A stretch of 44,413 nt of DNA from an uncultured Methanosarcinales archaeon (GTDB taxonomy: Archaea; Nanobdellota; Nanobdellia; Woesearchaeales; GW2011-AR9): the NCBI GenBank assembly GCA_964639875.1, contig CAZXEM010000003.1:1-44413 (forward strand). The letters run 5' to 3'. The number at the start of each line of letters is the position of its first letter. The stretch's first letter is position 1. This document shows positions 8,860 through 43,413 of the stretch, piece by piece. The translations under genes were made by a program, and so were the position numbers. Below the pieces are notes generated by a model. It saw nothing but the letters and a program-made list of their open reading frames with translations. It was not told the DNA's origin and made no database searches.

Positions 8860-9729
8860 TTATTTAATTATTTTTAACTTTTCTTTTTTTTCTAACTCAT
8901 ACTGATAAGTAAAATCAAGTAATAAGGTAGTAGTATAAGAAACTTTTTCTTTTAATGTTTTACTGCAAATTAAAATTGCTTCCTGTTTCTCTTTTTTAAG
9001 TTCAATAGTTAAATCAGTATTGGAATTTTGGAATTTACAATTTAACGATTCACTACCAAGTTTAGCAGAATCAAAATCAATCAGTTTAATTTTACCTTTA
9101 CCTTTATTTTTTAAACGGATTCTAAACTCTATCTCCGGACTATCGCCAGGCAAAATTATTTCTTCTATTTCATCAACAGCTAACGGCGCACCCTGCCCAG
9201 AATAACTTTTCAAATCATCAAATTTACAACCAGAATCATAAATTTCGTAAATGTTAGGGTTAATACAAACAGTATCAGTAAATTCTATTTTGGAAAAGTA
9301 AGATAAAGTTAAAAAGTAGTTTGCAAGATATTCTTCTGCGTTTTGAAAAAGATCTCCAGAATTACCAGAAAAATCAAAATATTTTTTATCCCCATCAGGG
9401 GCAGTAATACTTCTACCTTTCAAAAGATCAAGTGATTGTTGAGGATTCCCTTTATCTGGTGGAGAAACATCAAAATATTTTCTGTTCAAACCGACAAAGT
9501 TAACTTCTATAGTAGTTGCATCATAACCCATCTGGTTATCAAGCTGAACAACCATTTTAAAATCTGAGTTAGGATAAATTTCTTCAGGAGGTGCCCGATC
9601 AATAAAATCTATTCGCATTTCTGCTACCCCTTGTTTAAAATTGTACTGACTTAATTTTTCTGGAGTTTTACTACACCCTACAAGAAGAACAAAAATAATG
9701 ATTAAAAAAAGCAGGTTTAAACGTTTCAT
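8860..9729 (-). CDS. predicted lipoprotein, beta-rich extracellular (CARDB-like N-x-G motif)
   Basis: Lipobox LLVGC after a hydrophobic signal. ATGA start/stop overlap with the upstream gene. Contains an IRLKNKGKGKIKL-type motif. Confidence 0.6.
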   Translation of the reverse strand: MKRLNLLFLIIIFVLLVGCSKTPEKLSQYNFKQGVAEMRIDFIDRAPPEEIYPNSDFKMVVQLDNQMGYDATTIEVNFVGLNRKYFDVSPPDKGNPQQSLDLLKGRSITAPDGDKKYFDFSGNSGDLFQNAEEYLANYFLTLSYFSKIEFTDTVCINPNIYEIYDSGCKFDDLKSYSGQGAPLAVDEIEEIILPGDSPEIEFRIRLKNKGKGKIKLIDFDSAKLGSESLNCKFQNSNTDLTIELKKEKQEAILICSKTLKEKVSYTTTLLLDFTYQYELEKKEKLKIIK

Positions 9730-11654: not shown

Positions 11655-11703
11655 CTTCACCTCTTTTTTAAAAAAATTAAATAACAATAATAATTTTTAC
11701 AAT

Positions 11704-16373: not shown

Positions 16374-16777
16374 TTTTATAATATTCCTCTAATTGATTAT
16401 ATAGATACCCAATATTTAAGTTAAATTAGGAGAGTTATTTAAAAATGTTTCTAGTTTAAATGACAATAATTTGGTTAGTTGAAAATCTAGATAAATAGTT
16501 TAAACTGAACTTTAATTTTTCTAGTGAAATAATTCCAAAAATCAAAGACCATTTTTTAGAGATAGTGTTACAAAAAAAGCAAATTTTAGTCTTTTTTTGA
16601 AATAAATTACAAATCTGGGCTTCTTTTACAAAAGTAAGCGTTAAAAATCTATCCACTGTAGAATATAAAAGTATTTAAATAGGTACTTTATCCCCTGGTA
16701 TGGTAAAAACTATACTAATATGGGGCAAAGTCATTAGTTTTAAGTTAAATTGTTTAAAAAAGACAAAAAAAGGTAAA

Positions 16778-17560
16778 ATGCAAACAATAGGAATAATAGG
16801 AGGATTAGGACCAGAAGCAACACAACTTCTTTTTAAAAAGATTGTAGATAAAACCCCTGCAGAATATGATCAAGAACACCTTCCACTGATGATTTTTAAT
16901 AATCCTCAAATTCCTGACAGAACTAAAGCCATTCTTTATAATGGAAAAAGTCCTGTGCCAGAATTAATTAGAAGTGCGAGAATCCTAGAGATATCAGGCG
17001 CAGATTTTATTGTTATCCCATGTAATACGGCCCATTGTTTTATTAAAGAAATTGAGAATAAAGTTTCAATACCATTTATTAATATGATTGAAGCAACGGC
17101 CCAAGATATTAAAAGAAAATATCCATTAGTAAAAAAAATCGGACTTTTAGCAACTTCAGGTACAGTGAGTAGCAAAATTTACCATCAAAAATTTTCTAAA
17201 ATAGATATGGAGATTATTACCCCTTCCGAAGATGAACAAGAAAATATTGTTATGGAAAGTGTCTATGGTAAAAAAGGAATTAAAGCAGGAGTTCATGATT
17301 ATCCTGGTAAACAGTTAGAAAGGGCAGGTCGATCATTAATCAATCGAGGAGCAGAATTAATAATTACTGGATGTACAGAAATATCCATTGTGGTAAAACA
17401 AGAAAATGTTGATTACCCAATTGTTGATCCGTTAACAATTTTAGCAGAAAAATCAGTACAAACAGCATTAATCCCAAAAACTTCTATTGACTATGCCCAC
17501 TACAGGTTAGAAAATCTCCCTGAAAAAGAAGTTTTAGAAATCCTTGAAGAGGAAGAATAA
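16778..17560 (+). CDS. aspartate racemase (Asp/Glu/hydantoin racemase family)
   Basis: I use the ATG at 16778 (MQTIGIIGGLGPEAT). Two catalytic Cys motifs are present, IPCNTAH and TGCTE. Confidence 0.85.
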   Translation: MQTIGIIGGLGPEATQLLFKKIVDKTPAEYDQEHLPLMIFNNPQIPDRTKAILYNGKSPVPELIRSARILEISGADFIVIPCNTAHCFIKEIENKVSIPFINMIEATAQDIKRKYPLVKKIGLLATSGTVSSKIYHQKFSKIDMEIITPSEDEQENIVMESVYGKKGIKAGVHDYPGKQLERAGRSLINRGAELIITGCTEISIVVKQENVDYPIVDPLTILAEKSVQTALIPKTSIDYAHYRLENLPEKEVLEILEEEE

Positions 17561-18439
17561 ATGGTAAAAGTTGCAATTTTACATCAAGATATAGAGTGGT
17601 CAGAAAAACAATTCCAAGAAAGTTTTTCTAAAAAAAATATTGAGGTTGAGATGTATGATGTTAGAACCACTTCGCTAGATGAATTATTAAAATACGATTT
17701 AGTGATCAATAGAGTTTATGCTAGTGTAGCTAACAGAAATTACCCAGATAATTTAAAAACATTAGAACTCTTAGAAGAACTTGAAAATAATAATGTTTTA
17801 TGTTTAAATTCTGCATTAACTACCAAAGTTGATTATTTTAAAGATTATGCCGCAATGATGCAAGAAGAAGCAGGGTTAATAACTCCAAAGACAAGAATAT
17901 TTAGAAATGCAGAAGAAGCAAAGGAAATTTCTGAAGAATTAGGTTTTCCATTAATTATGAAAAGGAATACAGGTGGAAGAGCAGTAGATTTAAGAAAAAT
18001 TGATAACGAATCAGAATTAGACCAGTATTTATCTACCCATAAAAATCATTATGGTGGAGATTATATTTTACAAGAATTTTTGACAAGCAGTTTACCTTAT
18101 GATTATCGAGTTACAATTATCGAAGACCAATTAGCTTTTGCTTACAAGAGAAGTTTATTATCAGTAAATGAGGATGAAGATCCTTGGCTTGCAAGTGTTT
18201 CAAAAGGTTCAAGTAGAGAATTATGTACTCTGCCCGAAGAAGTACTTGATGTTGCATTGAAAGGAGCAAAAAGTATCAAAGCATTTTATGATTCAATGGA
18301 CATTATTGTTACGAATGAAGGACCAGCAATCATTGAACATAACCCAACCCCAAATTATAGTTGCACTGCTGAAGAAATTGAAAAAAGCGAACAGTTCATT
18401 GATGAGGTAACAGAAATAATTACCCACTATATTAATTGA
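17561..18439 (+). CDS. ATP-grasp ligase, RimK/LysX family-like
   Basis: Starts immediately after the racemase stop. The N-terminal pre-ATP-grasp domain (KVAILHQDIEWSEKQF) is colinear with LysX/RimK. Central GFPLIMKRNTGGRAVDL and a C-terminal ...IIEHNPTPN. Confidence 0.75.
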   Translation: MVKVAILHQDIEWSEKQFQESFSKKNIEVEMYDVRTTSLDELLKYDLVINRVYASVANRNYPDNLKTLELLEELENNNVLCLNSALTTKVDYFKDYAAMMQEEAGLITPKTRIFRNAEEAKEISEELGFPLIMKRNTGGRAVDLRKIDNESELDQYLSTHKNHYGGDYILQEFLTSSLPYDYRVTIIEDQLAFAYKRSLLSVNEDEDPWLASVSKGSSRELCTLPEEVLDVALKGAKSIKAFYDSMDIIVTNEGPAIIEHNPTPNYSCTAEEIEKSEQFIDEVTEIITHYIN

Positions 18440-18455
18440 AAGAGAAAATAGATAA

Positions 18456-19430
18456 ATGGACAAAATGATAAAATTAGGATTTGTTGCAGAACTGGATTTA
18501 AGAGAAGAGAACCAAAATTATCCCGTAACTAAAAAACAAATCCAAGAATATTTCGGCCCATTATCAGAACAGGGCCTAGACACATATATCTTTAGTTGGA
18601 AAAGTTTAACAGATCAAGGAACAGTAAATGAAGCATATTCAATAAATGAAGGAAAAACAAAAGAGTTAGACCTTAGTAAAGAGTTAGATATAGTTTTTAC
18701 AAAACAATTAGGCAATATCGCTAATTGCCCTCAAGAATTTCTTGATTATTTAACTTACCTGGGCAATGTTAATACCATTAAAGTCAATGAACCGGACAGG
18801 ATGAGATCAAATTTAGACAAAAACTATTTGATAAATTTACAAAAAGAAGGTTTTCCAGTAGTACCAACAGTTAATGTTTATAACCGCAAATTGGAAGAAC
18901 TTTTAGAGTATGATTTTGGAATAGAACATGAAGATATAATTTTAAAACCGAGAATATTTGGAGAATCAGGAAATGGAATTGTTAAATTATCTGATTTCAA
19001 AGGCGATGAAGAAGAATTCAACAGATATATAGACCAGAATCAACCAGTAATTGCTCAACCGATGATGAAAGAAATATTTCAAGGAGAAAAATCTTTAATT
19101 TTTTTAGGTGAAGAATTTTCTCACGGAATAACTAAAAAATCCACCACAGACAATTATAAAATTAACATTTCTTTCGGTACCGAATATGCCCGTTATTTTC
19201 CGAAACAAAATGAACTGGAGATGGCCCATAATATCATTGAACATTATAATGATCAGAATCAAATGACAAGAATAGATTTTTTAGATACTAAAGAAGGACC
19301 AAGAATTATGGAAGTTGAAAGGATAAATCCATCAACGTATACAACTCAAGTTGGCTTGGCCCACCATTTTTGTGATAACTTAGCAAAATTTATTAAAAGG
19401 GTTTACACAGAACAAAAAATTAATTATTAA
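18456..19430 (+). CDS. second ATP-grasp-like ligase (divergent)
   Basis: Central EGFPVVPT...IILKPRIFGESGNGIV (Lys/Gly-loop pattern) and C-terminal RIDFLDT..GPRIMEVERINPS (Mg/ATP acidic residues). The N-terminal domain is unassigned. Confidence 0.6.
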   Translation: MDKMIKLGFVAELDLREENQNYPVTKKQIQEYFGPLSEQGLDTYIFSWKSLTDQGTVNEAYSINEGKTKELDLSKELDIVFTKQLGNIANCPQEFLDYLTYLGNVNTIKVNEPDRMRSNLDKNYLINLQKEGFPVVPTVNVYNRKLEELLEYDFGIEHEDIILKPRIFGESGNGIVKLSDFKGDEEEFNRYIDQNQPVIAQPMMKEIFQGEKSLIFLGEEFSHGITKKSTTDNYKINISFGTEYARYFPKQNELEMAHNIIEHYNDQNQMTRIDFLDTKEGPRIMEVERINPSTYTTQVGLAHHFCDNLAKFIKRVYTEQKINY

Positions 19431-20277
19431 TTTTATTATAATTCTTACTAAACAAAGAAAGTAACTGTTGATATTTTTTATATCCTTCAGCAATGTTAGA
19501 AGAAGAAAATGTAACTTCTCGTGGATTTGAATTATTATGTTTAACAGAATCAAGATGTAAATCAATATGCGAATCAACATCTTCTAATAAATAAGCATAA
19601 GGAACTAAAACTTTCCAATGAAAAATTTGTGCTTTGAAATCAGCCCGATTAATAGTATCAACATTTTTTAAAGTGGATGCTAAACTTTCTTTAATTTCGT
19701 TAAAGACAACGTCTTTATCTTTAAGTTGAGATTGATGTTGACTCAAAGAAACTTTAGTAGTTACAGTAGGAAGGTTAGGAATTAACTGTTTTATTTCTTC
19801 AACAGCATTATTAGTACCTGAAAGGAAAATCAGTTTAACACCATTATCTTTTGCCACTAAGACATTTAATCCACTTTCTCCAAATTCAACATTATTAATA
19901 AAAACCCCAGATATTAATTTTGTACTATTGGTGTGGGCACAATAAGAATAATGTTGGTTAGCTTTTCCATGATAACCTAAGAAAATACAATAATCAACTT
20001 GTTCAATCCCTTCAAGCATTGAAGTTCTTCGTTTATGTTTGTTAACAAAATTAATCTTTGAATTTAATAATTCAGGAAGAACATTCTTTCCTGACCCGTG
20101 GGCATCAACCAAATAAACTTCTTCAACGCCATTATTAAAACAACAATTAGCAACCACATTAATTTCTTCAGTCATCAGAAGACGGGCATCTTGATATTCT
20201 TGACTAGAAGTGTTTAGAAAACTGCCACCAGTAATTCCAGTAACTCCTTCAATGTCAGCAGAAATCAATATTTTCAT
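19420..20277 (-). CDS. dppA: D-aminopeptidase, peptidase family M55 (DppA-like)
   Basis: The N-terminus MKILISADIEGVTGI...ARLLMTEEINV closely parallels Bacillus DppA (MKLYMSVDMEGISG...LIMTEEAN). The ORF track begins two codons earlier, at 20283. Confidence 0.75.
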   Translation of the reverse strand: MKILISADIEGVTGITGGSFLNTSSQEYQDARLLMTEEINVVANCCFNNGVEEVYLVDAHGSGKNVLPELLNSKINFVNKHKRRTSMLEGIEQVDYCIFLGYHGKANQHYSYCAHTNSTKLISGVFINNVEFGESGLNVLVAKDNGVKLIFLSGTNNAVEEIKQLIPNLPTVTTKVSLSQHQSQLKDKDVVFNEIKESLASTLKNVDTINRADFKAQIFHWKVLVPYAYLLEDVDSHIDLHLDSVKHNNSNPREVTFSSSNIAEGYKKYQQLLSLFSKNYNKINN

Positions 20278-20335
20278 CCCCATACTAAAATCTACAAGCG
20301 AAATTAATTTATATAACTTTCCATTTACAAGATAA

Positions 20336-20941
20336 ATGGAACCTTATTTACAAACAACCGTGTTTACTACAGCTGCTTCCTCTTTATTAACTATTTTACA
20401 TTACTTTAATCCAGAAATCAAATTAAGTAAAGATAATGAGTTCAAGATCTGGCAAAGTACAGTTATTTTGCCAACAAGAGCATCTTCAATTTTTGCCCTA
20501 GCTGATTATGCATTGAAAGAAAAATTAAATCTTCAAGTGATTGTAGAAAGTAAAAATTATGAATTCCCTGATTATCGGTTTTATCGTTATAAAAAAGAGG
20601 ATGTTGAAAACGCAACATTTTCATCAAGATTATATCTGAAAAATGCTAAAAAAAACAATTTGGAAATAGTAGAAAGAAAGATTACTTTAGATGACGTTAA
20701 AGAATTATTACTGGAAAATGTTTTGTTGTTAAGAATTAATACTAAACCCATTCGTGGAGAAAAAAGGAACACCTCAAACTTTATTGTTTTACATGGTTAT
20801 GATGGAAATTATTTTCATATTATTGATCCACAATCAGGAGGATTGTCAATTTCTGAAGAAATAATGGAAGAATCATTTTCCACTTTAGAAACTAAAAAAT
20901 ATCGTGACCATCAAATGATTGTGTTTAAGAAAAATCTTTAA
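20336..20941 (+). CDS. peptidase C39-like fold protein without any cysteine
   Basis: Has the Q-x5-[T]AASSLLTILHYF N-terminal helix pattern and VLHGYDGNYFHIIDP (His/Asp pattern) of C39/BtrH-like papain-fold domains. The protein contains no Cys. TATA (TTTATATAAC) lies about 26 nt upstream. Confidence 0.45.
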   Translation: MEPYLQTTVFTTAASSLLTILHYFNPEIKLSKDNEFKIWQSTVILPTRASSIFALADYALKEKLNLQVIVESKNYEFPDYRFYRYKKEDVENATFSSRLYLKNAKKNNLEIVERKITLDDVKELLLENVLLLRINTKPIRGEKRNTSNFIVLHGYDGNYFHIIDPQSGGLSISEEIMEESFSTLETKKYRDHQMIVFKKNL

Positions 20942-21212
20942 TCTTCCCTTGATTAACTTTAATTTTTAACAATTCTTGTTCAGAAAGTTCTTTTTTCTTT
21001 AACCAATAAGTCCCTTTGTAAGAATCTTTTGCAAGATAATTAAAATTCACTAATTCTCTTCTAAAAAGAACATAATCATCAACATTAAAAGATTGAATGA
21101 TTTCATTAACTTCTTGCTCAGTATAAACTTTTTCATCTTCAAACTTTTGCATAATCTGAGTAAGAACTGTTTGCTTTTCTAAATCGTTAGAAGGCAGAAT
21201 CATTAATTTCAT
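20925..21212 (-). CDS. DUF2087-like small protein
   Basis: The stretch YTEQEVNEIIQSFNVDDYVLFRRELVNFNYLAKDSYKGTYW matches the DUF2087 pattern (E.EVN...D...LRR.LV....L.R...G..Y). ATGA overlap with the upstream GH3 gene. Confidence 0.6.
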   Translation of the reverse strand: MKLMILPSNDLEKQTVLTQIMQKFEDEKVYTEQEVNEIIQSFNVDDYVLFRRELVNFNYLAKDSYKGTYWLKKKELSEQELLKIKVNQGKIKDFS

Positions 21213-22306
21213 TTTACATTAAACCCCTTCGCTTCAAGAATCTTTTTTACCGAATTATCAATTTGTTCTTCAGGAATGTCCCCATTAAGAACAGCTTCTT
21301 TAACAGTTTCAATCATGTGAAAAATTTCGTTAGGATCTTCGTTAAAATTAATAATTAAATCGTTACCTGCACTAAACACTGCCCGGTACAAATCTTCTTT
21401 TGAATCAAAAAATTTCTGTAAACCTAACATCATTGTATCATCAGTAATTATTAAACCGTCAAATTTTTCTTTTAAAGTGTCTACTGCTTTCTTGGAAACT
21501 ACTGCGGGCTTACCTTCAGAATTAACTTCACCATAAGAAATAACATGAGTTACCATCATCGATTTAACATCACCTTTATCACCTAAATAATTGTAAGGAT
21601 AAATATCCTCTAGAACAATTTCTGCAGTTACCATATTTTTATGAGGATCTTTGATCACTAGAGCTTTGCCTGGATAATGTTTAGCAGTAGCAATTACTCC
21701 TTGACTTTGTAATCCCAAAATATAAGCTTCAGCTAATAGAGTAATCTCTTCTTCAGTACCAGGAAAAGTTCGGCAGTTCCATATTTCATCATCTAAATCT
21801 ACAACGGGCGCATAATTAATAGTAAATCCTAAATCGTGAAGGAACTTACCTTCATCACTACCTTTTTGAAAAGCTTCACCTACATTTTTAACTTCACTCA
21901 CTGAATAAAAATCTTTAAAGTTAGCAAACGGATTCCAACATCCTTCAAGATCAACAGTAACAAAGAATGGGATGACCATATCTTCCTGAAAATCGTTGAT
22001 TGTGTTTTTGAACAGTTCTTCATCTTTCATTGCAAAAAGATGGATCCCACCAATTTGCATATTTTTCCAAACATTCAAATTGTGTCTACCGCCATGGACA
22101 ATTACCATTTGAGCAATTTTCTGTTCTAAAGTTAAATCGTTAAGATTGACAGTGTTGTCTTGGATAGGGATAGGATTTTGTTCTGGAATTAACCAACCTT
22201 TAGCTTTAGCTACGTTCAACGTTCCGAGAACAAGAACTAAAACAATCAGAATTAGGAAAACTATTTCACTTCTTGTCCTTCCCTTTTTGTTATTATTTTT
22301 GACCAT
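21209..22306 (-). CDS. membrane-anchored glycoside hydrolase family 3 (NagZ-like beta-N-acetylhexosaminidase) domain protein
   Basis: N-terminal TM anchor (IVFLILIVLVLVLGTL). GH3 motifs KHYPGK...DPH, MMVTHV and ITDDTMM. Confidence 0.8.
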   Translation of the reverse strand: MVKNNNKKGRTRSEIVFLILIVLVLVLGTLNVAKAKGWLIPEQNPIPIQDNTVNLNDLTLEQKIAQMVIVHGGRHNLNVWKNMQIGGIHLFAMKDEELFKNTINDFQEDMVIPFFVTVDLEGCWNPFANFKDFYSVSEVKNVGEAFQKGSDEGKFLHDLGFTINYAPVVDLDDEIWNCRTFPGTEEEITLLAEAYILGLQSQGVIATAKHYPGKALVIKDPHKNMVTAEIVLEDIYPYNYLGDKGDVKSMMVTHVISYGEVNSEGKPAVVSKKAVDTLKEKFDGLIITDDTMMLGLQKFFDSKEDLYRAVFSAGNDLIINFNEDPNEIFHMIETVKEAVLNGDIPEEQIDNSVKKILEAKGFNVK

Positions 22307-32469: not shown

Positions 32470-32540
32470 AGATAAAAAAAGAAAAAAAGAAAAAATTGGA
32501 GGAAGATAGTTAAGATAACTTACTTAATTAATAGTAAGTT
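32470..32540 (-). terminator. hairpin plus oligo-T terminator of the S-layer-like gene
   Basis: An 8-bp stem AACTTACT/AGTAAGTT (32517-32524 / 32533-32540) encloses the stop codon. On the transcript it is followed by T-runs (TTTTTTCTTTTTTTCTTTTTTTATC). Confidence 0.5.
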
Positions 32541-33856
32541 TTCTCTTCGTCTTCTTCGTCGTCTCTCTTAAGTCTACTGAAACCAATAATCAAACCAATG
32601 ATAACTAATAATACCACTAAGATGATTAATGCGATTTCTAAACCGTTTCTTAAGCTAAAACCACTTTCAACAGTAGCGCCAGTAACAGTTGCTTTTAGGC
32701 TGATTGTTTCTAATACTTCAGCACCGGACTGAACAGCTAGACTAGTAACATGTTCTCCAACAGCAGCAGATGCGCTAGGAGTTACGTCTACATAGACTAC
32801 TTTATTCTTTCCAGGTTCTAAAACAACTAAATTGTCACTTACAGTTGCAGTTGCCCAATCGCCAGTAACTGTTTCTAACAAATATGCTTTGGAACTAGTT
32901 CCTGCATTTGTTAAAGCAATAGCGTATTTAGCAGTAGTTCCTGCAGCTACAGTTTGACTTTCTGGACCAACAGCTAAAACTAACTTGTTTTCACTTGTTT
33001 GAAACATTTCGTTACTTAAAACGTTAATTTTGTAGCTCTTAGTAACTGTTTCTCTTAAGTCATCGTATTTAACAGTAACTTTAACTTCATACTCACCTTC
33101 AACAGCAGTTGCTGGAAGAGGTAAGAACATTTCTGGAACATCTTCATAATCTACATTATTATCTTCTGTTTCCACAACATCAACAAACTCAGTTGCACTC
33201 ACGCCTAAAGCGGGTACTGCAACAGTAACTTTAACGTCTTTCTCAGTCTTGTCACCGAAGTTTTCAAGTAAAACAGTAGTTAATAATGAACGTCCTGCTT
33301 TAACTGAAGTTCCAGGTGAAAATACAACGTCAGCGATATCTACGCCGTGTCGAGTTGGTTCAACGTTAAGCTTTACAATCTGCGTTACAGGTGCAGAATT
33401 ACTATTGTAAATATTTAGATGTAACCAATAAACTTGCTTTTCTAATTTCTTTGGTAAGTCAACGCTTAACTTCACAGTTTTCTTAGTATTTCCTGCCATG
33501 TCAAAAACATGTGTTGAATCACTTAATGATTCGTAGTCAGAATACTCGTATCCTTTGATCTTTGCATCAACTTCAATATCTTCTACAGCTTCACCAGTCT
33601 GTAGTCGAACTTTAATATCTAATGTTTGACCTTCGTCAACACTAATAGAAGGCACAGCAACATCACCGATGCCAATGTCTTCACCAATTATGTTTCCTTC
33701 TTCATCAACTATATTAATTACGTTAGTTCCTAAGTCAACAGAATCTCCGTTAACTTCTACTTCCCATTCAAAATTGTCTACACTAAGCGCACTAACCATT
33801 GAAACGGTCAATAAGGCCAATACAAACAAAACCATTAAACTCAAAATTTTTCTCAT
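32528..33856 (-). CDS. S-layer-like surface protein with C-terminal TM anchor and acidic tail
   Basis: I use the ATG at 33856 with GGAGG about 8 nt upstream; the track start at 33871 is TTG. Signal peptide, repeated beta-domains with N-x-G motifs (LLENFGDKT, ALTNAGTSS), and a C-terminal IALIILVVLLVIIGLIIGF + RLKRDDEEDEE. Confidence 0.7.
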   Translation of the reverse strand: MRKILSLMVLFVLALLTVSMVSALSVDNFEWEVEVNGDSVDLGTNVINIVDEEGNIIGEDIGIGDVAVPSISVDEGQTLDIKVRLQTGEAVEDIEVDAKIKGYEYSDYESLSDSTHVFDMAGNTKKTVKLSVDLPKKLEKQVYWLHLNIYNSNSAPVTQIVKLNVEPTRHGVDIADVVFSPGTSVKAGRSLLTTVLLENFGDKTEKDVKVTVAVPALGVSATEFVDVVETEDNNVDYEDVPEMFLPLPATAVEGEYEVKVTVKYDDLRETVTKSYKINVLSNEMFQTSENKLVLAVGPESQTVAAGTTAKYAIALTNAGTSSKAYLLETVTGDWATATVSDNLVVLEPGKNKVVYVDVTPSASAAVGEHVTSLAVQSGAEVLETISLKATVTGATVESGFSLRNGLEIALIILVVLLVIIGLIIGFSRLKRDDEEDEEKTYY

Positions 33857-34004
33857 TTTAACTTCCTCCAATTTCCACGTTTTTTTCGAAGATTGTGTTT
33901 TTTTTTAATTTAATCTTCTAAATTTGTGGTCCTATATAAACTTTTCTATTCTTTTAGTATTCAAGAGTAGCTACATTATGTAGCCATTCTCAAATGGTTG
34001 TCAT

Positions 34005-37000
34005 TCAATAGATAGTTAAGAGCCTATATGTTGACTCATGATACTCACTATTGGTAACAGTTACTTTGACAAGATAATCTCCTGGTTGAGCATTGTAAGG
34101 CATCTGTAAAACCAAGTTCTTGCTTTTTTGTTGTCCTGCCTTTAAGTCAAACTCTCCACCGGATTTTTTCAATCCTAAATCATAAACTAAAGCGGTAACT
34201 TTAAGGTCCTTCAACTTCTTATCACCATTATTTTTCATGTTAACTTGTAACGAAACATGCTCACCAGCGTTAGCAACTTCGGTACTCAACTTTACTGTTG
34301 CCAATTTAATGTTCTTGTAAGCTTCGCTAACACCAATAGTAAACTGCTGTTGAGCATACAACTGGCCGTCTGAGACGGTAATTAACACTTTTGCTTTCCC
34401 ATTATCAGTTGGTTCCCATTCAACCAATCCACTCTCACCAATAGTCATCCCTTCTGGTGCTTTAGAAAGGTAATAAATTAGTTTTTCTCCTTCTGGATCT
34501 GCTGCAACTAACTGATAACTGTAATCTTCATCTTCAGTAACGGTTGTTACTGGTTGTGAATAAATTACGGGTGCTTGATTAACAATAACAATTGTACACA
34601 AATCACCAATTCCATCACTGTTAGAATCTAACTGATCAGGATTAGCAGTTAAAGGACAATTGTCAACTTCATCACAAACACCATCATTATCAGCGTCTGA
34701 TAAACAAGGAATAACTTCACAAGCATCGCCAACACCATTATCATCACTGTCTAATTGATCAAGATTAGCAGTTAAAGGACAATTGTCATCTTCATCACAA
34801 ACACCATCGTTATCTGTGTCTACTAAACAAACAATTTCTTCACAAGCGTCACCAATTCCATCCATGTTAGAATCTAACTGGTCAGGGTTAGCAGTTAAAG
34901 GACAGTTATCATCTTCATCACAAACACCATCTTCATCGGTGTCTAATAAACAAGGTGTATCCAAAACCAAAATAGTGATTTTAACTTTTTTCGAAGAATT
35001 TGCTCCATGTTCGTCTTTTGCAACAAAAGTAACAAAGTAATCCCCCGCTTCACCAACATAAGTTTTCCACTGGAAAACATAAACATTTTCTTTTGTTGGG
35101 TGAGGACCTAAAACAATGTTTTTATTTAAAGCAATCCTTGAAGCTAATTCTAAAGTAATTTCATCACCATCTGAATCAGTTACTCCAATTTCAAACTCAA
35201 GACTATTACCTTCAGTAACTTCTTGATTTGGAAGGGGAGCAATCCGAGGTGCGTGATTAACAACAACAATTGTACAAGCGTCACCAATCCCATCCATGTT
35301 AGAATCTAACTGGTCAGGGTTAGCAGTTAAAGGACAGTTATCAAATTCATCACAAATACCATCGCCATCAGTATCACCATAAATATCTAAACAAGATAAT
35401 TCACAAGATTCAGTAACTGAAAATTGATAAGTTTCACTTACACTAGTTAATCCATCACTGATTACAACATCAAATTCGTACTTTCCACTATCATCACAAT
35501 CTGAAGTACCAGTAATTAGTAATTCATTTCCTGATTGTTGAGAGGAAACCCATTCTTCTGGTAAACCATTTACAACAAAGCTAAGTTCATCTTCAGCATC
35601 TCCATCAGTAGCAGTAACAGTTAATACAAGTGATTCACCTTCATCAACTATATCATTACCATTAATACTTAATGCAGGCATTTGGTTAACGTCATCAACT
35701 TTAACAAGAATAGTTTTAGTTGCATACAAGTTACCATCTGAAGCAGTAAAGACAAGTGTAACACTTTGACTTAACTTAGGATGAGTTACGTAAGTATAAT
35801 CTGGTTGCCAGGAAAATAAATAATTATTTTTGGCTGTTGCCGCTAAACTATATGGTTCTGAAAATTCAGTAGTAAAACAGTAAATACCGAAAAGAAGACA
35901 TTTCTTAACACCAACAGTTAAAGTATTGAATTCATCATCTTCAATTTCGAACTGTAAAGCCATACTTCCGCCTTCAACTAAATTGTAATTACCACCAATG
36001 TCATCTATGAACTCAGGAGCTTGGTTTACAGGCGCTTCAGGACATCCATTATTTGTTGCAGGCCCAGGTTCATTTGGACATAAATCCTGGTCATTAGGAG
36101 TACCATCTCCATCTGAATCAGAATCACAAACATCACCAATACCATCATTATCAGTATCTGCTTGGTTTGTATTTGCAATTAAAGGACAATTATCTTTCCA
36201 ATTGTAGATTCCGTCGTTATCTGCATCAGAGTCACAAGCGTCTCCCCAGCCATCTCCATCAACATTAGATTGATCAGGATTAAAAGTCATTGCGCAATTA
36301 TCATCTTCATCCATAATAACGTCATTGTCATCATCAGGATCACAAACATCGCCAACGCCATCATTTTCATTATCTGCCTGATTTGTGTTAGGAATGAACT
36401 GACAATTATCATTTACATCTAAGATGCCATCATTATCATCATCTAAATCACAAGCATTTCCTTCACCATCATTATCAGTGTCAGTTTGAAGAATGTTTTC
36501 ATCATTAATACAATTATCACAAACATCGCCATAACCATCATTGTCAGCATCTTCTTGATTAGGATTTTCGTTAGCGTAACAATTATCTTCATAATCAAGA
36601 ACGCCATCACAATCATAATCAGAACTACCTTCTCCACAAAGATCACCAACAACATCTAAGTTTAGTGAATGTGTTTGTGCACTAGTAGCGCTGTACTTAT
36701 CATCTAAAGTTATGGTAATAGTATATTCTCCCATTTTGTGATTATAATTAGCTGGACTAATAACTAAATTATAAGGAGAAGTAATTTGTTGATCATTTAA
36801 CAAAACCTTAATGTTAGCACCGTCAATTAATTTTACGGTTGCATAAATTGGATCTGCGGAAGCAAATAATCCAGTAGTGAATGAAACAGAGTCACCATTA
36901 CTGATCGTAGTACTTGTTCCTCCATTATCCCATTGCAGTTCCCCAGAAGGCCAAATTAAAGCCAGGGCAGCAGGAGATAATAAAAACATAAGCACTACAA

Positions 37001-37046
37001 TTAAAACAATTGTTTTATACGTAGTTTTCATTTTATGTAACCTCAT
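34005..37046 (-). CDS. large secreted adhesin with thrombospondin type-3 (Ca-binding) repeats, Ig/cadherin-like domains and a C-terminal CARDB-like domain
   Basis: More than 15 D-x-D-x-DG-x-x-D-x-x-D-N-C-P...N-x-x-Q repeats (e.g. DTDNDGIGDVCDSDSDGDG). NQAP...-initiated Ig-like modules and a signal peptide. ATGA overlap with the upstream gene. An alternative ATG at 37031 has GAGGT 8 nt upstream. Confidence 0.8.
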   Translation of the reverse strand: MRLHKMKTTYKTIVLIVVLMFLLSPAALALIWPSGELQWDNGGTSTTISNGDSVSFTTGLFASADPIYATVKLIDGANIKVLLNDQQITSPYNLVISPANYNHKMGEYTITITLDDKYSATSAQTHSLNLDVVGDLCGEGSSDYDCDGVLDYEDNCYANENPNQEDADNDGYGDVCDNCINDENILQTDTDNDGEGNACDLDDDNDGILDVNDNCQFIPNTNQADNENDGVGDVCDPDDDNDVIMDEDDNCAMTFNPDQSNVDGDGWGDACDSDADNDGIYNWKDNCPLIANTNQADTDNDGIGDVCDSDSDGDGTPNDQDLCPNEPGPATNNGCPEAPVNQAPEFIDDIGGNYNLVEGGSMALQFEIEDDEFNTLTVGVKKCLLFGIYCFTTEFSEPYSLAATAKNNYLFSWQPDYTYVTHPKLSQSVTLVFTASDGNLYATKTILVKVDDVNQMPALSINGNDIVDEGESLVLTVTATDGDAEDELSFVVNGLPEEWVSSQQSGNELLITGTSDCDDSGKYEFDVVISDGLTSVSETYQFSVTESCELSCLDIYGDTDGDGICDEFDNCPLTANPDQLDSNMDGIGDACTIVVVNHAPRIAPLPNQEVTEGNSLEFEIGVTDSDGDEITLELASRIALNKNIVLGPHPTKENVYVFQWKTYVGEAGDYFVTFVAKDEHGANSSKKVKITILVLDTPCLLDTDEDGVCDEDDNCPLTANPDQLDSNMDGIGDACEEIVCLVDTDNDGVCDEDDNCPLTANLDQLDSDDNGVGDACEVIPCLSDADNDGVCDEVDNCPLTANPDQLDSNSDGIGDLCTIVIVNQAPVIYSQPVTTVTEDEDYSYQLVAADPEGEKLIYYLSKAPEGMTIGESGLVEWEPTDNGKAKVLITVSDGQLYAQQQFTIGVSEAYKNIKLATVKLSTEVANAGEHVSLQVNMKNNGDKKLKDLKVTALVYDLGLKKSGGEFDLKAGQQKSKNLVLQMPYNAQPGDYLVKVTVTNSEYHESTYRLLTIY
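34596..34964 (-). repeat. three tandem 123-nt (41-aa) repeat units inside the adhesin gene
   Basis: Units start at 34596, 34719 and 34842. Each encodes C-L-x-D-x-D-x-DGVCDE-x-DNCPLTAN-x-DQLDS...G-x-GD-x-C. Confidence 0.85.
35274..35343 (-). repeat. dispersed 70-nt copy, 69/70 identical to 34842-34911
   Basis: Hand alignment shows a single T/C difference (caatTcc vs caatCcc). Confidence 0.85.
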
Positions 37047-38203
37047 TCTTCTTTTTCTACAGGACAGTAACCCAATTTAATCCAGAACTGAGGATCAATC
37101 TTGTTAAAGTCAGTTGCAGCACCAATGTAAGGTGCTAAACATAATTTTTCAGATAACTTGATTGGAACATCAATACCAAACAAAAGTGCATGAGTGGTAT
37201 CCATTTTTTCCGGTGACTGGTTATCGTTATGTTGATAAGTTTCTAAAACAGTACCGTTAGAATCCCTAATTTCTTCATGTCGACTTTTGCCTTCTTTACC
37301 AAAACCAACTTGATAACCGGCGCTTCCTAAAATTCCAAATTTCTTAAACATTTTACCCATGTTTACTTTTGCTGCAAAATATTTTTGTTGAATTTCTTTC
37401 TCACCATCAGTGTGTAATGTTCCTAAAGCAGTTTCAACAGGATCTTTAGAATCATCTAAAGTATAATTTTTCCCAAGGAAACCTAATTCTAATCCCCAAA
37501 CAAAAGTGGAATTAGTTACTCGATTGTAACCAACAACTCCGCCAGGAACAAATACATTATTATCAGTATCATACTGTCCTACAAATCCAACATAAACAAG
37601 ATCAGTTGTTCTTGCTACGGTTGAAGGAGCAATTACTTCTTCTAAAGTTTTATTTCCTGGAACTTGAAAACTTTGCCTTTCTATTTTTTCAACTTTAACT
37701 CCAGTATTACCAGGAGTAGCAGCAACTTTTTCAGCAACAATAGTTCCTAAATTAGTAAAAACAGTTTCACCTTCTGGACTGTTAACTCTTGATTCAGTAG
37801 TTTCACATCGACCATTTTCATTAGCATCATGGCATAACTCAAGACCTTTCTCAACTGGTAAAACCACCCATTGATAATCGTCAAAATGACCTAAAAAGTT
37901 ATCCATGTTTTGTGTTCTTGGACTATGGTCAGCAACTAAATCTTTAATCTCGCATTTGATACCACCATAAACATCTGCTGCGTTTTCAGCAGTAATTTCT
38001 ACTCTATCTCCTTCAACAGGAACATAAAATAAGTTTGTAGTTTCGGAAGTTGCTTTCTTTGCACCAGTAATAGAAACATTAGTTTCAGTTTCAACAGTAC
38101 TTTCAACTGGTTTTTCTGCTTCTTGTGCAGAAGCAACACCTGCTCCATAACTAAGTCCTGCAGCAATTACTGCAGCTCCAAATAATTTTTTTAGACCATT
38201 CAT
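37043..38203 (-). CDS. secreted protein; C-terminal roughly 190 aa resemble an 8-stranded OMP-type beta-barrel
   Basis: Sec signal with AQ cleavage (GAGVASA/QE) and GGAGG SD. The C-terminal half has about 8 alternating-hydrophobic strands (WGLELGFLG, YFAAKVNMG, SAGYQVGFG, LLFGIDVPIKL, LAPYIGAATDF, FWIKLGY). Confidence 0.6.
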   Translation of the reverse strand: MNGLKKLFGAAVIAAGLSYGAGVASAQEAEKPVESTVETETNVSITGAKKATSETTNLFYVPVEGDRVEITAENAADVYGGIKCEIKDLVADHSPRTQNMDNFLGHFDDYQWVVLPVEKGLELCHDANENGRCETTESRVNSPEGETVFTNLGTIVAEKVAATPGNTGVKVEKIERQSFQVPGNKTLEEVIAPSTVARTTDLVYVGFVGQYDTDNNVFVPGGVVGYNRVTNSTFVWGLELGFLGKNYTLDDSKDPVETALGTLHTDGEKEIQQKYFAAKVNMGKMFKKFGILGSAGYQVGFGKEGKSRHEEIRDSNGTVLETYQHNDNQSPEKMDTTHALLFGIDVPIKLSEKLCLAPYIGAATDFNKIDPQFWIKLGYCPVEKEE

Positions 38204-38204
38204 T

Positions 38205-39011
38205 TTATTCCTCCTTACCTAAAGGTTTGTACAGTAATGATTTTCGAAATGTTTCCATTTCATCAAAACTTTGTAGAGTTTTCAAATGAGCAAAATCAAA
38301 CAGTTGCCCACCGGTAGTATAATTTTTGATCCTTTCCGAAGGATCACACTTTCCATTTTCTAACATTGCATCAATGTAAGGTTTACGATCGCCGTCAAAC
38401 AAAACTTGACCGATACCGTCTGTACAGAAATACACGCCTTCTTTAGTAACATCAATAATTACTGGAACGCCATGCTGGTCAACAAGTTCTTTCTGCATTT
38501 CCCATTTAACAACCCGAGGATCATAAGTGTCCTCAACAGGGTCAAGTTTTGCAGTAGGTCCTTCTTCAGCCACTAGTTCAGTTACAGGTTCGGCTGCAGG
38601 TTCGGCTGCAGGTTCAACTACTTCTTCAGCTGCAGGCTCATCCATAATTTCATCTAAGTTTGCATCTGCAGGAACCATTTCTAGGGTCATTTCCCCTTCA
38701 GCTTCAGTTACTTCAACTGGTTGTTCAGCAACTGCAGTATCAACAGGTGCAAAATAAGTATCGTTAGCTGCAACTGCTTGCGCGTAAAGTGATTCTTGTA
38801 ATGGTTTATTTTCAGCAAACTGTTTTTCAGTAAGATAAACTGGTTTTGCATCAACAGTAGAATTGTAAACTACCACATTCATTTTAGGGTTACTAACATC
38901 TGATTTGATGTTGTACATCCATGGTGTACAAGATGCAAATAACATTGCTGCTCCTGCCAAAACCAGGGATCCTTTTCCAACAAGATGATCAAGATTTTTT
39001 CTTATTTTCAT
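38205..39011 (-). CDS. predicted lipoprotein with Ala/Glu/Pro-rich linker
   Basis: Signal ending in MLFASC (lipobox-like) and GGAGG SD. AEPAAEPAAEP linker encoded by a 12-nt tandem repeat at 38585-38615. Confidence 0.6.
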   Translation of the reverse strand: MKIRKNLDHLVGKGSLVLAGAAMLFASCTPWMYNIKSDVSNPKMNVVVYNSTVDAKPVYLTEKQFAENKPLQESLYAQAVAANDTYFAPVDTAVAEQPVEVTEAEGEMTLEMVPADANLDEIMDEPAAEEVVEPAAEPAAEPVTELVAEEGPTAKLDPVEDTYDPRVVKWEMQKELVDQHGVPVIIDVTKEGVYFCTDGIGQVLFDGDRKPYIDAMLENGKCDPSERIKNYTTGGQLFDFAHLKTLQSFDEMETFRKSLLYKPLGKEE

Positions 39012-39034: not shown

Positions 39035-40324
39035 TTAATCACGTAAAAATGCACAATTATACTTAACGCAATCTTTAGGTTGACATTCTTTTTCTTTGTA
39101 AACTTCTTTTTCTATAATCTCAGGTGCAGGACAAGTTTTAGTTGGACAAGTTGTCTCCCGAGCAATTTTTAGTTTACTTTCACAACTAGCTAAGTCATCG
39201 CTTGCAGTTTCAAATTGTTTTTTGTAACTAGCATTGTCGTCATTATTATTTTTAGCATCAATTAAATTTTGATTACACGTTCGATAAGATTGAAGACACT
39301 CATCAAGCGTACCTTTCTTGAAAGCAGCTAAAGCGTCACAGTCAGCAAGACCATCTGCACAGGATCCTAATTCTCCCCATAAATAATCAACTTCGCCAAG
39401 ACAAGTAAGAGTTGAACCAATGTTAGCAGAATTATCATCTTCACAAGTAGCATAATCTGTTTTACAATCATTATTTTTAATTTGACAGGCAATCAAAGAA
39501 AGAGACTTTTTATCTAACGCTTCTCCTCCTGTAGCAATTGTCTCTTTTGCTTTACCTAATTGTAACCCTAAACCCTCATTTGATGTAGATAACTGGTTAT
39601 TTCTCCGAGTTAAACTTTCATTCTCTTTAACAACTTGAACATAAGCAGGATTGCCTTCAACAGGGACAAACGATTTTTCACCATGATATTCAATGTAAGC
39701 GTTAGTTCCAAACAAACTAATTGTAGCTCCTAATAAGAAACCAACAAGACCATATTTCATTTTTCCATTTGATTTATCTTCTTTCATTTTTTCATACCCT
39801 CCTGGGCCGTTAACATCTTCAGGTATCCCTGTTAATTCTTCACTTTTTTGTTCCACTGGTTCACTTTTTTGTTCCGGAAGATTAGGTGGAACATTTGGTA
39901 GAACAGTTGTTTCTTGTTTTTCATTATCTACAACAACTGCTGCTTCGTAAACGGTATCATCATTTTTTTTCTCAGAATCAGCACTTTCATTAAAATTAGC
40001 TTGTTCTCCTGGTTGTCCTGAAGTTTGTTCTTCTGGTATAAACCAGGCTGTATTATCAAAATCGTTATTAGGATTACTTTCCTCTGATGTGGGTTCATCG
40101 GTTGGTTCATTTTTTAGAACTGGCTTATCACTAAAGTAAATTTCTAAATATTCAACAAATTCTTTAGTGTTGCCCGGAACTTCTTTACCTTCAACAGTTG
40201 TCGAATAAATAATGCCGTCGTCTTTAATTAATGAATCTGATTCATTAAGAGCAATGACAATTTCTTCCTCACTCCTACCTATTTTTTCCACCAATAAATC
40301 TATTGTATCGTTTCTATTACCCAT
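39035..40324 (-). CDS. single-pass membrane protein: acidic cytoplasmic N-domain, extracellular coiled/Cys-rich domain
   Basis: I use the ATG at 40324 preceded by GGGGTGGA; the track start at 40351 is TTG. TM helix YGLVGFLLGATISLFG. The C-terminal roughly 200 aa contain about 16 Cys. Confidence 0.6.
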   Translation of the reverse strand: MGNRNDTIDLLVEKIGRSEEEIVIALNESDSLIKDDGIIYSTTVEGKEVPGNTKEFVEYLEIYFSDKPVLKNEPTDEPTSEESNPNNDFDNTAWFIPEEQTSGQPGEQANFNESADSEKKNDDTVYEAAVVVDNEKQETTVLPNVPPNLPEQKSEPVEQKSEELTGIPEDVNGPGGYEKMKEDKSNGKMKYGLVGFLLGATISLFGTNAYIEYHGEKSFVPVEGNPAYVQVVKENESLTRRNNQLSTSNEGLGLQLGKAKETIATGGEALDKKSLSLIACQIKNNDCKTDYATCEDDNSANIGSTLTCLGEVDYLWGELGSCADGLADCDALAAFKKGTLDECLQSYRTCNQNLIDAKNNNDDNASYKKQFETASDDLASCESKLKIARETTCPTKTCPAPEIIEKEVYKEKECQPKDCVKYNCAFLRD

Positions 40325-40501
40325 ATTTAATCCACCCCACACTATAACCAAATTATAAATACTACTCTGAAGTAGACACCCCTATATAAATGTTTTGCAA
40401 TAATTGTTAAAACGGAGTAGTAACTGCAAGTGAGAGGTGAAAATCGACTAAAAACGAGATTAGAACAGTAAAAAATTAAAATTAAAAACGGTTAAACACA
40501 T

Positions 40502-41910: not shown

Positions 41911-42546
41911 ATGAAATATACTGAAGAATTAGCTGAAATTATCGGCATCATGTTAGGAGATGGATGTTTGTGTAAAGCCAAAAAAGGAAATAACACCTAC
42001 AGCACAATAATTACTTCTGGGAAAAATGAAAAGCATTGGATTAATTACGTTAAGAATCTATTTGCAGACTACTTTAATCAAACTTTTAAAATAGTAGAAA
42101 TAAAATATGGATTACAAGCAAGAAATTATAGGGGTAATGTTGCTGAACACCTAATAAAAGCTGGCTTACACCATGGAAACAAAATAAACAACAAAGTAGA
42201 AATTCCGCCATGGATATTTCAAAAGAGAAAATTCTTATTAAAAGCAGTGCAAGGTTTATTTGATACAGATGGGTGTGTTTACAACAAATACGGAAACTAT
42301 GCACAAATAGAATTTAAGTTTGGTTGTATTGAAACAACAAGTTCTGTTCACAAAGCCGTTAGTAGTTTAGGATTCAACCCCACAAAAATACAAAGACAAA
42401 TCCATAGTATTACTGGAAGATTTCTGTGGAGATTTTATCTTTCAAGACAAGGAGAAATAGACTTATTTTTTCAGAAAGTGAAACCCAAGAATCAAAAGCA
42501 TCAATTAAGATACAAAAAAATAAAAAGTGGGGACACTGGGATTTGA
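41911..42546 (+). CDS. double-motif LAGLIDADG homing endonuclease
   Basis: Motif 1 LAEIIGIMLGDGCL and motif 2 LLKAVQGLFDTDGCVY are about 100 aa apart. 211 aa, the size class of single-chain I-DmoI-type enzymes. GGAGGT SD. Confidence 0.85.
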   Translation: MKYTEELAEIIGIMLGDGCLCKAKKGNNTYSTIITSGKNEKHWINYVKNLFADYFNQTFKIVEIKYGLQARNYRGNVAEHLIKAGLHHGNKINNKVEIPPWIFQKRKFLLKAVQGLFDTDGCVYNKYGNYAQIEFKFGCIETTSSVHKAVSSLGFNPTKIQRQIHSITGRFLWRFYLSRQGEIDLFFQKVKPKNQKHQLRYKKIKSGDTGI

Positions 42547-42804: not shown

Positions 42805-43413
42805 ATGAAAACAACTTACTTAATCTTAACGGCAATTCTTAGTGCAACTTTAAGTTTTGGTTGTAATAAAACAGAACCAGTTCAGAAAGAAGCAAGCAAA
42901 TTAGAAGAAACCATTAGTAAAACAGAAAAATCAAGTGAACTTGAAAAAGCTCTTGCTAATGAAGAAGAAGCTGTTACTAAATGTGAAAAAAGAAGGGGTA
43001 AGGTATTTATTAGCTACGGCAGTAAAGATTGTGCCCAAGGATACGGAGCCAGAGAAATTGTAACTTGTCTGACTGGATCAAATCTTAGTGTTAATAGTTT
43101 TGGTTTTCCATGTGATAACATTCCAGAGAATAGCGAGGAGAGATGGATAGCAAATTGCCAAGAAGTTTCTGGTGAAGTAGTACAAAAGTATGAAGCAGAA
43201 AAACATCTTTACAAAGATTCTTCTAAGGACAACCAAAGTTGCTTTTGGGTTAGAGAATGCGTTCCAGAAGACCCAAAACTAAGTTGGGGACCATTAGCTG
43301 ACCTCTTTAAACAAATTCCTTGTGACTTTAGTTCTACTGCTAGTTTAAAAGTCAAAGAAATAAAACATTTCTCAAATCCTTGTTATTGCTCCATTGGTGG
43401 CGGCCCTATTTAA
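42805..43413 (+). CDS. predicted lipoprotein, Cys-rich
   Basis: Signal ending in LSFGC (lipobox), then a Glu/Lys-rich linker and a domain with about 12 Cys. Confidence 0.6.
   Translation: MKTTYLILTAILSATLSFGCNKTEPVQKEASKLEETISKTEKSSELEKALANEEEAVTKCEKRRGKVFISYGSKDCAQGYGAREIVTCLTGSNLSVNSFGFPCDNIPENSEERWIANCQEVSGEVVQKYEAEKHLYKDSSKDNQSCFWVRECVPEDPKLSWGPLADLFKQIPCDFSSTASLKVKEIKHFSNPCYCSIGGGPI

Follow-up and report, generated by a model that had tools for sequence, protein, structure and literature searches.

A candidate OMP-like eight-stranded beta-barrel in a very rare family of secreted archaeal proteins

Introduction

Transmembrane beta-barrels are regarded as a hallmark of bacterial outer membranes and of the organelles derived from them. 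Whether an archaeon can also encode one is the question raised by a gene on contig CAZXEM010000003.1, analysed here as one stretch of 44,413 nucleotides (the window). A minus-strand open reading frame (ORF) of the window, 37043..38203, encodes a protein of 386 residues, hereafter the target, whose last part (37043-37620, that is, residues 195-386 and the stop codon) had been read from the letters alone as an eight-stranded barrel of the outer membrane protein (OMP) type in an archaeon. Overall, this idea is partly supported: the target belongs to a new, very rare family with an OMP-like sequence architecture, and we give about an even chance to the view that its C-terminal domain is an OmpX/OmpA-like eight-stranded barrel, an apolar element for anchoring or docking a cell-surface adhesion module.

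The double-membraned archaea named in reviews are Ignicoccus, ARMAN, Altiarchaeum and Methanomassiliicoccus (PMC4243693, PMC8871954, PMC4429474). In the literature searched we found no established archaeal transmembrane beta-barrel; the only hint is a passing mention of a possible distal relative of the PopA superfamily, which is porin-like and lipid-trapping, in Candidatus Altiarchaeales (PMC12228718). That relative belongs to another superfamily (oligomeric, porin-like) and to another, double-membraned lineage, and is set apart from the target by its description only. A limited search found no literature on the envelope ultrastructure of Woesearchaeota, the kind of archaeon from which the window probably comes.

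Results

Eight amphipathic segments in a secreted protein

Inspection of the translation bears out that the target is secreted. Its N-terminus has the layout of a Sec signal, MNGLKK-LFGAAVIAAGLSYGAGV-ASA, with cleavage expected between VASA and QE, and the n-, h- and c-regions with A-S-A are kept in the relatives P0001-3 and P0006. A scan of the target protein outside the signal found no further hydrophobic helix.

All eight segments of the original prediction were located, at residues 202-211, 217-229, 234-244, 274-286, 290-302, 339-350, 354-366 and 373-379, and all are amphipathic and 7-13 residues long. The alternation of hydrophobic and small or polar residues, which had been called strict, mostly holds but is slightly overstated: the phase of segment 2 (VFVPGGVVGYNRV) is ambiguous, and K284, P358 and T364 fall on the hydrophobic face. 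The motif A-P-Y-I-G-A-A is present at residues 357-363, and E239, on the inner (non-hydrophobic) face, is invariant in all lineages.

By inspection, the connections 2-3, 4-5 and 6-7 comprise 5, 2 and 3 residues, and 1-2 and 7-8 are also short. The sole long connections, both very polar, are 3-4 (~28 residues) and 5-6 (~36 residues), which places them on the same side of a meander sheet. Tight turns on the side of the termini and long loops opposite are the arrangement of bacterial OMPs. On the hydrophobic face of most strands, aromatic residues stand at the ends and aliphatic ones in the middle, for example F234-W-L-L-F242, F276-A-V-M-K-F286, F218...Y226 and F373-I-L-Y379, and the aromatic spacing of 8-10 residues fits a belt of ~20-25 Å. 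What we see is a set of hairpin-connected amphipathic strands, even in number and about nine residues long or longer, with one apolar side and one Gly-rich or polar side, and this pattern is kept in divergent homologues that are 17-28% identical over this domain.

The last hairpin has support of its own. Cys355 and Cys380 are both present in the window clade and in P0006 and both absent from P0004 and P0005, the latter carrying C-x6-C across the 7-8 turn instead. In strands 7 and 8 the two residues point to the same face, and they are directly opposed if the turn is N367-K368. C380 therefore probably pairs with C355 as a disulfide within hairpin 7-8, and the placement and co-occurrence of the two cysteines support that hairpin.

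The composition of the two faces resembles that of bacterial barrels

To compare face composition, the eight best non-overlapping 9-mers of each protein were ranked by the hydrophobicity of one face, and for the other face we recorded what fraction of the residues is Gly. This fraction is 0.25-0.31 in the C-terminal domains of the target, P0006 and P0004 and 0.28-0.31 in OmpX, OmpA, OprF and NspA, whereas it is 0-0.12 in ten soluble beta controls (streptavidin, beta-lactoglobulin, FABP4, GFP, four neighbouring Ig/CARDB segments, the target's own N-terminal domain and the lipoprotein encoded next to it).

A composite score was then taken over the best 190-residue window of each protein, as the hydrophobic-face score plus opposite-face Gly minus opposite-face bulky residues. 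Three family members rank 1-3 of 70 ORFs in the archaeal loci, and in each of these three the best-scoring window begins at residue 191-201. We checked the score on 151.5 kb of Escherichia coli K-12 that had not previously been examined (124 ORFs). The top six of the 124 are all OMPs (ompA, ompX, ompT, the ElfC usher, an nmpC porin fragment and ompF), and the family members score 0.75, 0.87 and 0.96 against 0.73 for the best E. coli non-OMP; some OMPs, namely ompW, fepA and nfrA, are missed. In both face composition and score, the eight-stranded architecture proposed for the target is like that of OmpA, OmpX, OprF and NspA and unlike that of soluble beta proteins.

Two other measures were dropped: a crude strand counter, which gave a marginal result against shuffled sequences (P ~0.05) and failed to tell OMPs apart from Ig proteins or helical membrane proteins, and the picking of strands by maximum face contrast, which selected charged loops.

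The predicted fold is an all-beta meander nearest to OMP barrels

AlphaFold2 modelled the C-terminal domain, with P0006 added to the alignment, as an all-beta meander of ten long strands (8-22 residues by DSSP). Eight of them coincide with the proposed strands, and in the remaining two, loops 3-4 and 5-6 are extended as hairpins; strands 5 and 6 are prolonged into the hairpin SRHEEIRD-SNG-TVLETYQH. This hairpin, S307-N326, is the best-conserved stretch between the window clade and P0005, and its L320-E321 is invariant in all lineages.

A Foldseek search of the PDB with this model returned the barrel of OprF (OprF-N) first (E 2.2e-3, probability 1.0, TM-score 0.46 on the target), followed by OmpA, Ail, a minimal OmpA platform (tOmpA) and OmpX with probabilities of 0.72-0.96; GFP-like barrels reached a probability of at most 0.25. 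Against BFVD, nearly all named top matches are phage-encoded OMP barrels, two of them at E <= 1e-3: 'Outer membrane protein' (1.8e-4), an Opacity-type protein (8e-4), OMP beta-barrel and OmpA-domain proteins. Soluble up-and-down barrels, that is avidins and lipocalins, were not among the Foldseek matches in either library. The original prediction was to fall if the model were a soluble beta-sandwich or if profile similarity to OMPs were lacking; a soluble sandwich is not predicted, and no such similarity was found, as follows.

Evidence that weighs against an OMP-like barrel

Several results count against a barrel of the OMP kind, and the first is the lack of detectable homology. Searches of Pfam, NCBIfam and PDB sequences gave no match for any of the seven family members, even at E <= 10. 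The expected similarity to PF13505 or PF01389 was not found, nor any to PF06316, although PF13505 finds all four positive controls (OmpX, OmpA, OprF and NspA, E 4e-8 to 1.5e-24). Single-sequence and profile searches with both domains returned noise only (DUF5520, E 0.009; alpha-synuclein, 0.12; Wzi, 0.46; dynein LC8, 0.47).

Profile-profile comparison agrees. When the target family was compared by hhalign with alignments of the four OMP families, built from 120 retrieved homologues, the probabilities were 0.2-1.9%, equal to those of reversed controls. True cross-family OMP pairs in the same test gave 1.3-60%, some of them only 1-4%, so that with these shallow alignments the test has limited power. 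Its best local match aligns NspA VKPYLGARLSLN with target LAPYIGAATDFN, the PYIGA motif of the original prediction. The family alignment against OmpX alone gave nothing, and hhalign self-comparison revealed no internal hairpin repeats. By sequence comparison, membership in the bacterial OMP families is unsupported.

Confidence in the structural model is also low. With four near-identical sequences the full-length prediction has a mean predicted local distance difference test score (pLDDT) of 27.8, and the C-terminal domain with P0006 added reaches a pLDDT of 43.5 and a predicted TM-score of 0.39; the alignment is too shallow for a confident AlphaFold2 model, and a model of this quality demonstrates neither closure of the barrel nor a hydrophobic belt. 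The Foldseek TM-scores to OMPs are only 0.3-0.46, at root mean square deviations of 8-12 Å. As to the composite score, it is supportive and not decisive, because it was devised after the target had been seen and was validated on a small sample.

Finally, the usual accessories of an OMP are missing. There is no C-terminal aromatic beta-signal: as had been noticed, the chain runs ...KLGY379 and then CPVEKEE, so that seven residues follow the last strand and none of the terminal ones is aromatic. None of the 42 window ORFs of 100 residues or more, in a span of 44 kb, encodes an Omp85/POTRA or Bac_surface_Ag protein, TamB or a chaperone, and the search for an insertase that had been called for is thus negative for this part of the genome. 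We know of no outer membrane in this lineage, and a classical surface protein with a transmembrane (TM) anchor in the same operon points to an envelope of the monoderm, S-layer kind, in which a second membrane is not evident.

A very rare family native to an archaeal genome

The archaeal origin of the gene, in turn, held up well. The window carries the archaeal markers RLI/ABCE1 (825 bits to the equivalog), aIF5B, an archaeal-type TrpRS, Cbf5 with DKCLD and PUA domains, and ribosomal protein S3Ae, and its GC content is ~31%. At third codon positions the GC fraction (GC3) of the target gene is 0.147, at the low extreme compared with 0.158-0.255 in the housekeeping genes of the window; its total GC is slightly higher because of codon positions 1 and 2. 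The identical protein occurs in the same gene order in at least six independent assemblies (JGI, Logan, ENA), the synteny is the same in at least eight, with archaeal genes flanking it on both sides, and versions 85-98% identical exist in other assemblies, one of them a GTDB species representative. By GC3 and synteny, then, the gene is native.

Outside this clade, relatives are few. When 1.84 billion representative proteins were searched exhaustively with HMMER, the matches were the target's own cluster and three related clusters, P0004 (428 residues), P0005 (a 111-residue fragment) and P0006, together with one spurious repeat protein and no bacterial OMP. Word-index searches found only P0001-P0006, and neither two scans of metagenomes nor one of viruses gave a match. 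A genome scan gave a single locus, L002 (CAZQLW010000006.1), 87% identical. The sole named relative, P0006 (397 residues), is 24% identical to the target along the full length and is recorded as a hypothetical protein from 'Candidatus Woesearchaeota archaeon'; its locus, L003 (JACRPJ010000076.1), keeps the five-gene synteny. The family is thus very rare, with about four sequence clusters worldwide and no Pfam model.

The P0006 label and the synteny make a DPANN, Woesearchaeota-type archaeon the probable source of the window. Public labels conflict on this point, L002 being recorded as 'uncultured Methanosarcinales archaeon' and L003 as Woesearchaeota; low GC and gene content favour DPANN, and the L002 label is doubtful.

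The target lies in a conserved cluster of surface-protein genes

The window, L001, L002 and the distant Woesearchaeota contig L003 share a gene cluster (Table 1) that encodes, in order, a one-span membrane protein, a lipobox protein, the target, a giant repeat protein, a CARDB protein with a TM anchor and a geranylgeranyl-reductase-like flavoprotein. The first four genes are tightly packed, with gaps of 23 nt and 1 nt and then a 4-nt ATGA overlap between the target stop and the adhesin start; in L003 the lipoprotein and target genes also overlap, by 4 nt.

Table 1. Features of the target protein and of its gene cluster in the window.
Feature	Position	Strand	Basis
Signal peptide, residues 1-27 (MNGLKKLFGAAVIAAGLSYGAGVASA, then QE)	38123..38203	-	by inspection
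N-terminal soluble domain, residues 28-195, no known family	37619..38122	-	conserved in P0006, P0004
Cys-bracketed EF-hand-like loop C124-x-D126-x-N128-x-N130-G-x-C133-x3-E137	37793..37834	-	alignment of three lineages
Candidate eight-stranded amphipathic beta-barrel core, residues 202-379	37067..37600	-	strand pattern, AlphaFold2 DSSP, Foldseek, face-composition score
Loop 3 protruding beta-hairpin S307-RHEEIRD-SNG-TVLETYQH-N326	37226..37285	-	alignments, AlphaFold2
C-terminal tail Y379-CPVEKEE	37046..37069	-	tail pattern search
438-aa protein, acidic N-part, one span (~198-218), Cys-rich C-terminal ectodomain; first gene of the cluster	39035..40351	-	
268-aa lipobox protein (MLFASC, then TP), stop 1 nt before target start	38205..39011	-	by inspection
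1013-aa secreted repeat protein, start overlaps target stop by 4 nt	34005..37046	-	domain search
447-aa signal-peptide protein, NPCBM_assoc/CARDB-like, C-terminal TM anchor (403-421)	32528..33871	-	kept in L001, L003

The N-terminal domain of the target has no match among Pfam, NCBIfam or PDB sequences. Within it, C124, D126, N128, N130, C133 and E137 are invariant across three divergent lineages, and the loop also contains G131. The positions match those of a 12-residue EF-hand-type loop (1, 3, 5, 8, 12), here bracketed by cysteines and giving no hidden Markov model (HMM) match; a loop of this type has D or N at positions 1, 3 and 5, Gly at 6, a hydrophobic residue at 8 and Glu at 12. Going by this pattern, the loop may bind calcium.

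The target and the lipobox protein appear to be linked in two ways. They have a Cys-loop module in common (hhalign P = 1.1e-3 over 41 columns), in which target GLELC-HDANENGRC-ETTE...VF aligns with lipoprotein GVYFC...ENGKC-DPSE...LF. They also have similar C-terminal tails, FWIKLGYCPVEKEE in the target and FRKSLLYKPLGKEE in the lipoprotein (38208..38249, minus strand), and the L003 pair repeats this with GIGLGYCQPAQK and NALLYQPLKRDKK. A regular-expression search for Y-x(1,2)-P-x(2,8)-end among ORFs of at least 80 residues found only these two gene families at four loci. Other C-termini among the relatives of the target are ..GYCQPAQK, ..GYTPSSTEE and ..LELRIKR. The shared tail may be a sorting or docking signal. 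The lipoprotein gene, which encodes ~192 residues in L003, stands upstream of the target in L001, L002, L003 and L005-L009; its putative lipobox, recognised by inspection only, reads AMLFAS-C-TP in the window and GINIG-C-TP in L003, to be compared with the pattern [LVI]-x-[GAS]-C at the end of a lipoprotein signal peptide.

The remaining members of the cluster point to the cell surface. The 438-residue protein has no family match in Pfam or NCBIfam, and its positional equivalent in L003 has 477 residues with a coiled coil, a TM span and a Cys-containing tail. The 1013-residue protein contains nine TSP_3 calcium-binding repeats, He_PIG/Big_9 Ig domains and a C-terminal NPCBM_assoc/CARDB-like domain. 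Equivalents with Ig repeats lie downstream of the target in L001, L003 and L005 (1008-1012 or 720 residues), the one in L003 (3234..5396, 720 residues) having PKD/He_PIG domains. The 447-residue protein resembles a cell-surface or S-layer protein. As a separate observation, CSDSDNDGVCDKDDNCP in the giant protein of L003 has the same form of TSP3 motif as the post-barrel linker of the OprF-family protein P0081 (CNDEDSDGVCDNLDKCP); this may echo the barrel-plus-TSP3 architecture of bacteria or may be motif convergence.

Other genes in the window

A gene at 7337..8281 (minus strand) encodes GpsA, a bacterial-type NAD-dependent glycerol-3-phosphate (G3P) dehydrogenase (PF01210, PF07479 and PF20618 'Bacterial GPD'), on this archaeal contig. 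Bacterial-type lipids are built on G3P, so the gene may be relevant to the lipids that the organism makes or scavenges. At 16700..22306 there is a cluster of wall-polymer and D-amino-acid genes that is unusual for an archaeon, comprising glutamate racemase, two RimK/GSH-S-type ATP-grasp ligases, a D-aminopeptidase (M55), a C39-like peptidase and a GH3 (NagZ-like) hydrolase.

Two further loci concern the envelope. Four consecutive genes at 8315..12903 (minus strand; 176, 289, 653 and 399 residues) encode proteins with N-terminal hydrophobic segments, the 653-residue one with six predicted spans; none has a Pfam match, the two largest have no NCBIfam match either, and together they may form a further uncharacterised envelope cluster. 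A Cys-rich protein of 202 residues (42805..43413, plus strand), with no family match, has a lipobox-like signal (TLSFGC, then NK) and is a putative surface lipoprotein. The window also contains a free-standing LAGLIDADG homing-endonuclease-like ORF (41911..42546, plus strand; PF03161 and PF14528) with no obvious intron or intein host gene, and a small cupredoxin/plastocyanin-like copper protein (2665..3051, plus strand) in surroundings otherwise poor in metabolism.

Discussion

In several respects the C-terminal domain of the target is like OmpX/Ail/Lom and the N-terminal domains of OmpA, OprF and NspA (PF13505, clan MBB): ~150-190 residues, a Sec signal, eight long amphipathic strands with an aliphatic/aromatic face and a Gly-rich/polar face, and tight turns on the side of the termini. 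As in OmpX and Ail, two loops extend the sheet, and as in NspA, with its KPYLGARL, a P-Y-x-G-A motif is found, here in the penultimate strand. In contrast, it has no HMM or profile-profile similarity to these proteins, continues past the last strand with CPVEKEE, where those proteins finish on Phe, Tyr or Trp, and has a probable disulfide within hairpin 7-8. The barrel of OmpA and OprF is N-terminal, whereas that of the target would follow a soluble domain of 170 residues. Moreover, neither an outer membrane nor the beta-barrel assembly machinery (BAM) is known in its archaeal source. What appears to be new is the occurrence of an OMP-like architecture in a new family, in another domain of life and with a different order of domains.

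An archaeal comparison is Ihomp1 of Ignicoccus hospitalis, which is very small and oligomeric and is not known to be a beta-barrel. If the target were membrane-bound, it would resemble Ihomp1 in being a protein of an archaeal outer lipid layer; the two are unrelated in sequence and come from different phyla. Ihomp1 (Imp1227) is the dominant protein of the outer cellular membrane and is called 'a novel pore-forming complex' in PMC4243693.

On the reading that we favour, the target is a Sec-exported envelope protein of two domains. Its N-terminal half would be a soluble module with a disulfide-bracketed EF-hand-like loop, and its C-terminal ~185 residues most likely fold as an antiparallel eight-stranded barrel. 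The aliphatic/aromatic face would form the exterior, turned toward lipid or another apolar layer, around a Gly-rich, tightly packed interior. Both termini and three tight turns would lie on the cell-proximal side, and on the distal side loops 3-4 and 5-6 would extend the sheet as hairpins that offer a binding surface. In our proposal the barrel serves to anchor or dock a probably calcium-dependent cell-surface adhesion complex, with the lipoprotein as the barrel's likely partner through the common Cys-loop module and the Y-x-P tail. The closed barrel, its insertion into a membrane, the kind of membrane (an archaeal outer layer or that of a host) and the partners in the complex are what we infer from these patterns.

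A bolder version, which we put forward only tentatively, is that a DPANN lineage has beta-barrels of its own that are truly embedded in lipid, bear no sequence relation to bacterial OMPs and are assembled independently of BAM. In vitro, OmpA, OmpX and similar small barrels can fold into lipid without BAM, so that insertion into an archaeal outer layer or into a host membrane is conceivable. In one variant, the organism would have an outer lipid layer that requires beta-barrel anchors. In the other, a secreted 'harpoon' barrel would insert into the membrane of a host cell while the N-terminal domain pairs with the paralogous module of the lipoprotein, tethering the symbiont beside the giant calcium-dependent adhesin. 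In either case the common Y-x-P tail would be a new sorting or assembly signal.

Alternatively, the C-terminal domain could be a soluble, inside-out barrel or sandwich of the avidin or lipocalin kind, a non-membrane part of the surface complex whose hydrophobic face is a core or ligand pocket; we think this rather unlikely, though it deserves serious weight. Alternation alone cannot tell which face is the outer one, and streptavidin/avidin and the lipocalins share with the target the number of strands, the meander topology and the hydrophobic/polar alternation. Such a protein would also sit comfortably with the lack of OMP homology, with an envelope in which neither an outer membrane nor an insertase is known or seen, with the TM-anchored S-layer-like protein of the operon and with the low confidence of AlphaFold2. 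However, the polarity of streptavidin and lipocalins is inverted, their exposed face being richer in Ser, Thr, Asn, Gln or charged residues and containing 0-12% Gly, whereas a soluble target would expose a face that is 25-31% Gly and ~19-31% charged, outside the 0-12% Gly of all ten soluble controls. It would also have to fit ~34 bulky aliphatic and aromatic residues, as counted from the translation, inside an eight-stranded barrel. On inspection, aromatics cluster at strand ends and aliphatics at the centres. Furthermore, Foldseek ranks OMPs and not avidins or lipocalins first in two libraries, and only OMP barrels exceed 0.74 in the E. coli calibration.

It is improbable, in our view, that the domain is an oligomerising beta module, either a subunit of a ring or pore like those of pore-forming toxins or a cross-beta, amyloid- or fibre-like surface assembly. 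Certain pore formers and functional amyloids typically have amphipathic Gly-rich beta segments and highly charged loops as well, the best profile match in the PDB is alpha-synuclein (non-significant, E 0.12), and the very large adhesin of the operon needs a scaffold. Against this, a monomeric barrel accounts better for eight consecutive hairpin-connected strands whose turns on one side are a tight 2-5 residues, the conserved Cys pair would staple hairpin 7-8 within one chain, there are no internal repeats, and the Foldseek matches are monomeric eight-stranded OMPs.

That the gene is a bacterial OMP gene, functionless in the archaeon and brought in by mis-assembly, mis-binning or very recent transfer, might be suggested by the bacterial-type genes GpsA, MurI and GH3 in the window and by the likeness of the neighbour's TSP_3 repeats to the post-barrel linker of OprF-type proteins, but is essentially refuted by the same gene order between archaeal flanks in many independent assemblies, by a GC3 of 0.147 at the low extreme, by a search of 1.84 billion representatives that gave four related clusters and no bacterial OMP, and by orthologues that have diverged to 24% identity inside a conserved archaeal operon. 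Contamination, chimerism and recent transfer are for practical purposes excluded.

If the C-terminal domain proves to be soluble, the five-gene cluster would still be a useful marker of a Woesearchaeota-type cell-surface module. If, on the other hand, it is a true membrane barrel in a DPANN archaeon, it would bear on whether some uncultured archaea are diderm, on how barrels are assembled without BAM and on how episymbiotic archaea attach to their hosts, and a small (~190 residues), expressible protein would be at hand with which to test these three questions.

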